DNA of 54,820 nucleotides from a virus. Lineage: Duplodnaviria; Heunggongvirae; Uroviricota; Caudoviricetes. Below, in pieces: positions 27,001 through 28,266 of the stretch. Within the stretch, counting starts at the first letter, position 1; each line of letters opens with the position of its first letter. Location: IMG/VR virus record IMGVR_UViG_2879731240_000008; one strand, written 5' to 3'. Position numbers: made by a program.

Positions 27001-28266
27001 GCCTGCGGCAATCAGCGCCAGAACAGCAGCCGACAGGCCGTATTTGATTTTTGCGCTCATGGATATTTATCAGGATTTATCGGCAACAAATAACGAGCCA
27101 ACTTATATACGCCTTTTAAGATAAGTCAGCCCCGGCTGGATCCAGTCATCAGGCTCTTTCTTAAAGGGGGAGTATTGAAATCACGAAGAAGAGCCTCCCG
27201 CACCGCAGCATCCATGTCTGCACCACTGGCAAGTGCTTCAATCTCTGCCGCCACCTGCAAATACCCCATGCAACGGCCAATGCGTTTCATAACTCTGGTG
27301 TTTTCGTCTTTCAGGCATCTGATAGCGAGATTAATAATTTTCAGGCAGTGATGATGCGATGCCCGGACAGGTTTTCCGTTCTCATAAACGACGAACTCAC
27401 CCTCTTCACAGGAAACCCTGAAAGGCCGATGGGGTTCCTGGTCTTTATCCGGTGCAGACGCAATAAAATCACTTTTATGCTCTTCCTCTCCGGCACTGTT
27501 AACCGTAATGACGTACTCAGGCCGCAGGTAAGCCGCCTCTTTTTCTGACAATGCGGCCGGTAAAAACTTTTCCTGCAAAAACTTCATAAAAGTCTCGTGA
27601 GCGACTTTGTGGCAGTAATCGTAAATCGCCGCATAATGCTCATCGCGGCGTTTGTTTTCATCTTCAGAACTCACCAACGCCGACAATTTTTTATTAAGCT
27701 CAGTGATTTCATTTTCCAGGTGATTGAATCGCTGATTCATTTCTTCATGCTTCATTATTTACTCTCCCCGTGCAGCCTTACGCTTGTCTTCTCTTATTTT
27801 GAAATACAGATTCGTCAGATAAGTCAGAAGCCCCAGAAGCAGACTTCCCAGCACACCAATCGCAGCCCACTGTGATGGCCTGACCTGATCCAACCACTGC
27901 AAAAACCAGTAGCCGGCACTGCCGGCGGAGGTGCCGTAGGCAATGCCCGTTGAAATTTTGTCCATGGATTTCATAGCCTCACCTCCGCAAATAACGGATG
28001 GCGTAGTTTTACACTGAGAAATGAAAGGGATTTGAAAAGAAAAAAACGCAAAAGCGGGCGAAACGATATATACAGTAAGGAAAGCACTCTATCCAACAAA
28101 CCACCCACAGTTAATCGGAATAAAAGCAGAGTGCTTATGAATGATCGCACGCCCGAAGGTTAGTATTTCTGCACAGCAATTTTGCAAAAAAAGGCGATCA
28201 TTCATAACTTAAACGTCTTTCAGTCACTCCGGGATTTCCCATCATCGCAGACTGAAAGACTCTGAC

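Follow-up and report, generated by a model that had tools for sequence, protein, structure and literature searches.

The Qin prophage protein YdfR (P76160, 103 amino acids, DUF1327) is encoded between the S21-type holin gene essQ and an RrrQ-type lysozyme gene, and its residues 1-72 were found to bind the catalytic N-terminal half of RNase E in bacterial two-hybrid and pull-down assays; RNA co-purifies with the protein, and its overexpression has little effect on the transcriptome (PMC13232886). The same slot, with the same succession of a holin stop codon, 3-4 nt and an ATG, is occupied by the genes of two longer proteins, gp05 of Shiga toxin 2 (Stx2) phage 86 (YP_794052.1, 268 amino acids) and a 333-amino-acid protein designated P0004, both of which carry a DUF1327 head and an intact C-terminal tail. 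Here we describe an open reading frame (ORF) of 209 codons in this slot, located at 27126..27755 on the minus strand of the Caudoviricetes record IMGVR_UViG_2879731240_000008, a stretch of 54,820 nt that is referred to below as the window. Its product is homologous to gp05 and P0004 in two modules, B and C, but has neither their head nor their tail. YdfR corresponds to the head module of the same modular family and has no sequence overlap with the window protein.

The same architecture, start context and position are found in headless B+C slot proteins of 185-222 amino acids (P0002, P0006, P0030 and BCI98956.1 of Stx2_12E129), which are 63-89% identical to the window protein. These relatives keep a tail of the form PPFKKxPxxWxxPGLTYLKGRI, and in about a quarter of them a convergent gene of the family phrog_1853 comes next, whereas the window has neither. 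A further comparison is offered by the late-operon morons of lambdoid phages (stx, nanS-p, bor and an ant-like gene between R and Rz), which are non-essential, mosaic and part of the Q-dependent transcript, and most of which have their own promoter. Lambdoid morons have defined products or phenotypes. There is no sign that the 209-codon gene has a promoter of its own, and no promoter-like or terminator-like site above chance occurs between the holin gene and the ORF. Our literature search found no paper on the C domain; DUF1327 is mentioned in passing in a genomics paper, and a survey of Stx-flanking regions ends at the holin. The head that binds RNase E is missing from the headless form, which leaves modules B and C without a functional lead. 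We consider it probable that the window gene is a damaged, headless allele of the modular phrog_1085 or long-YdfR accessory family, which occupies a variable slot between the pinholin gene and an RrrQ-type endolysin gene.

A modular family in the lysis slot

The ORF listing and the PF04971 and PF00959 matches of the neighbouring genes place the ATG-initiated ORF between a pinholin gene and a signal-arrest-release (SAR) endolysin gene, and the gene order bears out what the sequence-only reading had said of it, namely that it is an uncharacterised gene in the ydfR slot, encodes a protein about twice as long as YdfR and is placed for late co-expression with the lysis genes. Its start had been put on the holin stop codon, but the ATG actually lies 3 nt past the stop (TAA-ATA-ATG), with a GGAG Shine-Dalgarno (SD) sequence inside the holin 3' end. 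The gap of 65 nt to the endolysin gene had been given correctly, and 23 of these nucleotides (27103-27125) are an out-of-frame leftover of the ancestral reading frame.

The sequence-only reading had recognised no family. The protein nevertheless matches phrog_1085, a PHROG of unknown function, with an E value of 1.2e-73 and 249 bits over profile positions 117-288 of 296. In the long 'YdfR family' proteins, the portion behind DUF1327 is homologous to it. The profile positions that the window protein leaves uncovered are 1-116, which represent the head, and 289-296, which represent the end of the tail. PF07041 (DUF1327; gathering score 25 bits) gives no match to the window protein even at E<=1, compared with 152 bits for gp05 and 118 bits for the PhiR12_2 protein (E value of the gp05-type head 3.7e-45). 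Scans of the ORF against Pfam and NCBIfam returned sub-threshold coiled-coil noise only, and sequence searches of the PDB with the single protein and with family profiles returned nothing below E 0.05.

Alignment with gp05, the Stx2_12E129 ORF and the DUF1327 protein of PhiR12_2 resolves separable modules, which follow the holin directly in the order A (the DUF1327 head), linker, B (a coiled coil), variable linker, and C (a small alpha/beta domain with its tail); the window protein is B+C without A, although most slot genes encode this head. Residues 63-201 are 57.6% identical to gp05, itself annotated as a 'YdfR family protein', residues 4-62 resemble the C-terminal part of DUF1327 proteins of PhiR12 phages, and P0004, an A+B+C protein, is 82% identical over 94% of the query. 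Module B (residues 1-63; 27567..27755, minus strand) contains the helical hairpin or coiled-coil sequence EEMNQRFxxLENEIxELNKKL...KRRDExxAAxYDYC and is also fused behind DUF1327 in slot proteins of 169-183 amino acids. The linker (residues 64-108; 27432..27566, minus strand) is predicted to be disordered and is hypervariable, with large indels in the alignment. The core of module C (residues 109-196; 27168..27431, minus strand) is predicted to form a three-strand beta meander and three helices, and it carries the invariant motif GRCMGYLQVAAEIEA. Of the 80 IMG/VR loci that were selected by their C domain, 71 have the form B+C (185-222 amino acids) and 9 the form A+C; all 80 genes follow the holin, and 78 lie clearly between holin and lysozyme, the other two loci being cut by contig ends. 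The headless B+C form is thus common and a normal architecture of the family.

At E<=1e-3 the 209-residue protein has 132 homologues. A tblastn search of 50,697 phage genomes found relatives confined to phages of Escherichia coli and Stx phages, and among 185,579 species genomes close relatives occur only in Shigella flexneri, E. coli and one Escherichia sp. When 1.84 billion representative proteins were searched with a profile, 40 matches were obtained, all of them relatives in a phage context and none annotated; these 40 representative clusters include members at 30% identity. The distant relatives (30-37% identity) match phrog_1085 and retain the coiled coil, the C core and the tail. A DUF1327-like head is present in P0125 (sub-threshold, E 0.004) and in P0127, which aligns to gp05 over 95% of its length, and is missing from P0138 and P0139. 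Their genes are located between Q and the holin gene, after a DUF4406 gene with which they overlap by 4 nt, and not inside the cassette.

The claim that the protein has no membrane segment held up (Kyte-Doolittle maximum 0.76 over 19 residues; grand average of hydropathy -0.63). It has no transmembrane segment, as a holin, antiholin or spanin would, and matched no holin or spanin profile of Pfam or PHROGs; the product is predicted to be soluble. The predicted N-terminal coiled coil was also recovered, since AlphaFold2 (AF2) predicts a helical hairpin or coiled coil there. For the window protein (alignment of 38 sequences) the mean predicted local distance difference test score (pLDDT) was 52.7, with helices at residues 3-28 and 31-63 and values under 50 from residue 63 to residue 109; when this model was compared with the PDB by Foldseek, no match resulted. 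The intact relative P0002, modelled from 43 sequences with the distant ones included, reached a pLDDT of 70.7 and 75-89 in the C domain and tail. Its model comprises a helical hairpin (3-64), a disordered segment (65-108), a beta meander (113-130), helices at 134-149, 155-176 and 183-193, and a tail helix at 210-216.

The sequence-only reading had further called the C-terminal region Cys/His-rich, which is true of the window sequence (5 Cys and 10 His); most of these residues, however, are not conserved across the family. The conserved ones among 43 sequences are H136 (42/43), H134 (34/43) and C162 (38/43; replaced by Ser or Ala in the distant relatives). A zinc-binding Cys/His domain was considered and rejected, because it would require a conserved set of at least 3-4 ligands, whereas the other Cys and His residues vary among the same sequences.

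The intact members of the family would be soluble cytoplasmic proteins that are made late, together with the lysis proteins. Contacts with other proteins would probably be their mode of action: the coiled coil would mediate oligomerisation, and the binding surface would be formed by the C domain together with the tail. They would be accessory, moron-like factors and not part of the core lysis machinery.

The frameshifted tail of the window allele

DNA alignment and three-frame translation place a 1-nt deletion in a run of five C residues (27166..27170, minus strand; G5 on the plus strand). The closest intact relative, the P0004 gene, has six C residues here; apart from this base, its last ~210 nt and the intergenic region show 100% identity to the window. 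In two other relatives the site reads CCACCC or CCGCCC. By the deletion, the 20-residue tail is swapped for 12 unrelated residues. The out-of-frame replacement tail, ..LRKSLMTGSSRG followed by a stop, is encoded at 27126..27165 (minus strand), and the window protein ends in ..NTPPLRKSLMTGSSRG, whereas its relatives end in ..NTPPFKKEPDDWIQPGLTYLKGRI. The ancestral tail coding sequence (27103..27165, minus strand) now stands in the -1 frame and reads FKKEPDDWIQPGLTYLKRRI up to its stop; in the three-frame translation the -1 frame of the window reads SPFKKEPDDWIQPGLTYLKRRI before the stop codon. The ancestral stop (27103-27105) lies 42 nt before the endolysin start, as it does in locus L004. The conserved tail PFKKxPxxWxxPGLxYLKxR is accordingly absent from the window protein and readable only in the -1 frame.

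Selection on the family was estimated as the ratio of nonsynonymous to synonymous substitution rates (dN/dS), calculated pairwise by the Nei-Gojobori method for 35 unique intact genes, the pairs of which are not independent. The overall value was 0.34; the tail had the lowest value (0.18), followed by the C core (0.22) and module B (0.44). In the linker the value was ~1.25, in an alignment that is unreliable and riddled with indels, and this segment could be unconstrained or diversifying, as far as such an alignment can indicate. Eight positions of the tail (F198, K199, W205, P208, G209, Y212, L213 and K214) each reach 90% conservation or more in a set of 43 sequences that extends down to 30% identity; the C core is likewise kept in the relatives at 30-37% identity. 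Given this conservation and the lowest dN/dS, the deletion removes the most constrained segment of the protein.

E. coli FDAARGOS_944 carries an annotated ORF of 630 bp with the identical sequence (WP_001300760.1). The 209-residue product is also encoded in E. coli ECMA0423, in 12/80 IMG/VR C-domain loci and in S. flexneri SFBU1023, whose sequence agrees with that of the window at 99.76% over 7 kb. The exact protein, named 'bacteriophage protein [Shigella flexneri]', is found on at least 1000 contigs. The recurrence of the same allele in these records and on so many contigs shows that the deletion does not stem from a sequencing error. The allele has become fixed in a S. flexneri prophage lineage in which the spanin genes are cut by an insertion sequence (IS). 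Independent frameshifts or truncations of the tail were found elsewhere in the family, in P0042, P0074 and L128. The sequence-only reading had named a fused or frameshifted remnant of known lysis genes as a result that would speak against it, and this applies in part: a 1-nt deletion has indeed cost the gene its conserved tail, but what remains is the remnant of an accessory gene and not of a lysis gene. From the comparison with intact relatives, the window copy is most likely a hypomorph or a young pseudogene.

Slot occupancy, the convergent gene and competing explanations

The slot had been supposed to be normally empty, and this was examined in two samples of IMG/VR loci. In the first, which comprised 73 loci with a holin at least 90% identical to that of the window and a downstream endolysin, the holin and endolysin genes abut in 26/73 and are separated by an insert of 312-1085 bp in 47/73, and all 47 inserts start with DUF1327. 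The endolysins of the 47 occupied loci are 88-99% identical to that of the window, and those of the 26 empty loci 31-35%. The second sample was picked by the endolysin (at least 94% identity, with a visible holin), and an insert was present in 77/77 loci, 74 of them with DUF1327, one with B+C and two (L248 and L250) with only the convergent gene phrog_1853. In complete E. coli genomes a 'YdfR family protein' or 'DUF1327 domain-containing protein' is likewise annotated between a class II holin and a lysozyme. Because occupancy tracks the endolysin lineage perfectly, the premise of an empty slot is wrong for this cassette lineage, in which an insert was present in every locus of both samples. 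The content of the slot is varied and may be A only, A with a linker, A+B, A+C, A+B+C, B+C or the convergent gene alone. We infer that the family is accessory and not core, since the content of the slot is hypervariable and distant relatives sit outside the cassette.

Some points weigh against the reading as a damaged accessory gene. The loss of function is deduced from conservation, while codons 1-196 have stayed intact and the allele has spread very widely. For the window protein itself the AF2 model is poor, and the structural statements rest on the intact relative P0002. Moreover, the perfect linkage between an occupied slot and the RrrQ-type lineage (47/47 and 77/77 vs 0/26) could mean a functional tie to lysis and not simply cargo.

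The convergent gene encodes a protein of ~104-111 amino acids of the function-unknown family phrog_1853, with the motif ELSYLDCxWDxxYAxxQKxRLF and pairwise identities of 27-77% across E. coli phages and distant relatives. It lies directly downstream of C-domain genes, tail to tail with them, for example at 2993-3307 in L001, 3154-3468 in L002, 2378-2713 in L091, 585-902 in L094 and 436-759 in L095 (all on the minus strand). It was found in 23/80 C-domain loci and in 0/80 loci with DUF1327-only inserts, is the sole occupant of the slot in L248 and L250, and is absent from the window. As a separate observation, Tad2-like (PF11195) and DUF4406 genes stand beside the lysis cassettes of related prophages (L004-L006, after Rz; L010, 7980-8291; L091, 1089-1487; L093, 4639-5004), which suggests a general hotspot for cargo or counter-defence genes around the lysis genes.

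These neighbours raise the possibility that the family serves as an effector of host takeover, anti-defence or inter-phage competition, in which the C domain would cooperate with phrog_1853 or be counteracted by it and the DUF1327 head, where there is one, would target RNase E. The convergent arrangement with C-domain genes, the Tad2-like and DUF4406 genes flanking related cassettes, a linker dN/dS above 1 and the binding of RNase E by residues 1-72 of Qin YdfR (PMC13232886) all point in this direction. However, phrog_1853 is missing from the window and from 57/80 C-domain loci and can occur alone, the window protein does not have the head that carries the RNase E-binding surface, PADLOC-DB gave 0 families at E<=1 for it, late expression is unusual for counter-defence, and the favourable evidence is circumstantial throughout. 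We regard such an effector as unlikely.

The linkage with one endolysin lineage speaks for a dedicated lysis regulator, that is, a slot protein that tunes pinholin triggering or the release of the SAR endolysin. Translational coupling is suggested by the start codon, which in all relatives lies 3-4 nt past the stop of the holin gene, and in the distant locus L092 the family gene belongs to the same operon as the genes of an S21-type holin and an RrrQ-type endolysin (69% identity). A model for regulation by a cytoplasmic protein exists in T4 RIII, which supports the antiholin. The linkage is nevertheless explained equally well if there is no flanking homology for a precise deletion of the slot, and because the content of the slot is not constant (74 loci without a C domain, one with B+C and two with only the convergent gene), no single protein is tied to the endolysin. 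Furthermore, in L092 the endolysin gene directly overlaps the holin gene and the family gene lies two genes upstream, and the holin close to the family gene of L093 is a member of another family (PF16080). The window protein has no membrane segment, and the S21 holin encodes its own antiholin by means of a dual start. A dedicated regulator of lysis is therefore rather improbable in our view. We would give a similarly small chance to a two-gene module of the late operon in which the C domain and tail work with phrog_1853, either coupled to RrrQ-type lysis as a cytoplasmic timer or brake on the pinholin and SAR endolysin, or as an effector/antidote pair in host takeover or conflict between phages, the interchangeable DUF1327 head adding RNase E targeting; if this were true, the Shigella allele would be a natural tail-less mutant of that system.

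It is very unlikely that the allele is still fully functional, with a tail that is either dispensable or restored by a -1 slip on C_CCU_UUA, which would give ...NTPPL-KKEPDDWIQPGLTYLKRRI. The deletion does create an in-frame X_XXY_YYZ heptamer (C_CCT_TTA, 27162-27168, minus strand), although this is a formal match only; the conserved tail in the -1 frame has an intact coding sequence, and the allele is fixed on at least 1000 contigs. A slip of this kind would call for a stimulatory structure 5-9 nt downstream, whereas the 77-nt downstream fold has -16 kcal/mol and a z score of +0.36 vs shuffled sequences, and no well-placed SD-like stimulator lies upstream. Since the tail sequence is 100% identical to that of an intact relative, the event is young and the intactness of the tail is uninformative. 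The independent tail frameshifts and truncations in P0042, P0074 and L128 are as expected of decay, and S. flexneri fixes many pseudogenes.

A chance reading frame or annotation artefact, for which the lack of a Pfam or NCBIfam match is the only support, has practically no probability and was rejected in view of the 132 homologues, the 40 representative clusters down to 30% identity, the C-core dN/dS of 0.22 and a gene position and start-site geometry that are conserved.

Late operon and state of the prophage

The damaged allele is embedded in a late operon that reads, in the sense direction, Q, four tRNA genes, holin, the 209-codon ORF, endolysin and Rz/Rz1. The late antiterminator Q is encoded at 28777..29193 (minus strand; PF06530, E 5.8e-54), and the gene can be assigned to the late operon because Q and the tRNA genes lie upstream of it. 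The tRNA genes (CAT, Arg-TCT, Thr-TGT and Gly-TCC; 28267..28577, minus strand) are the only Rfam matches. ARAGORN calls the CAT-anticodon tRNA Met, and RefSeq annotates the equivalent in FDAARGOS_944 as tRNA-Ile, presumably lysidine-modified Ile2. Such a tRNA cluster is typical of Stx-like phages, and stx genes are absent.

The pinholin gene of the S21 type (27759..27974, minus strand; 71 amino acids) matches PF04971 at E 5.5e-35 as well as the holin families phrog_9876 and phrog_20, and its product has the dual-start motif MKSMDK. The RrrQ-type SAR endolysin gene (26527..27060, minus strand; 177 amino acids) matches the phage lysozyme family PF00959 at E 5.4e-24; the N-terminus of the protein is a hydrophobic SAR-like segment, and the endolysins of near-identical E. 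coli loci are annotated as rrrQ or lysozyme. Rz (26126..26545, minus strand) and the embedded Rz1 (26116..26310, minus strand) are cut at their 3' ends by an IS at ~26129. By alignment, Rz has 139 amino acids here vs 155 in the intact and otherwise 99% identical cassette of E. coli FDAARGOS_944, and the end of Rz1 is altered by the IS.

This IS belongs to the IS3 family (24866..26129, minus strand; HTH_Tnp_1 and rve domains; orfA 25762..26064 and orfB 24908..25726). Its right end was set by alignment and its left end is approximate. A 272-codon ORF at 47822-48640 (minus strand) has the same length as orfB and matches the same IS copy (99.4% identity by blastn), and the occurrence of this element in multiple copies in the window is in keeping with a Shigella-type genome. 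On the plus strand, at 38254-38525, lies another 3' fragment of an Rz/Rz1 pair, which stands alone and has the Rz C-terminus intact (..IRDGIISDQTALRMLQEYIR). Its identity to the 3' end of Rz in FDAARGOS_944 is 94.5%, and transposase fragments flank it (IS pieces at ~36259-38243). It looks like the product of an IS-mediated rearrangement or like what is left of another lambdoid cassette.

The interval from the IS to the large terminase gene (22675-24642) contains no ORF of 120 codons or more, the size of the small terminase Nu1, and the prophage looks defective in both lysis and packaging. Since Rz and Rz1 are cut by the IS, the cassette is already defective, which fits the decay of an accessory gene.

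The window gene is thus a catalogued hypothetical protein gene, probably crippled, in a decaying Shigella-type prophage, and the finding in the window itself matters little. The family to which it belongs is among the most widespread function-unknown genes of the lambdoid and Stx prophages of E. coli and Shigella. It has a slot in the late lysis transcript, always together with one SAR-endolysin lineage, its tail is strongly constrained, and a conserved convergent partner is present in about a quarter of the loci. The questions that it raises at the level of the family, concerning the role of the C domain with its tail, the partner gene and the linkage to the endolysin, are of moderate interest.

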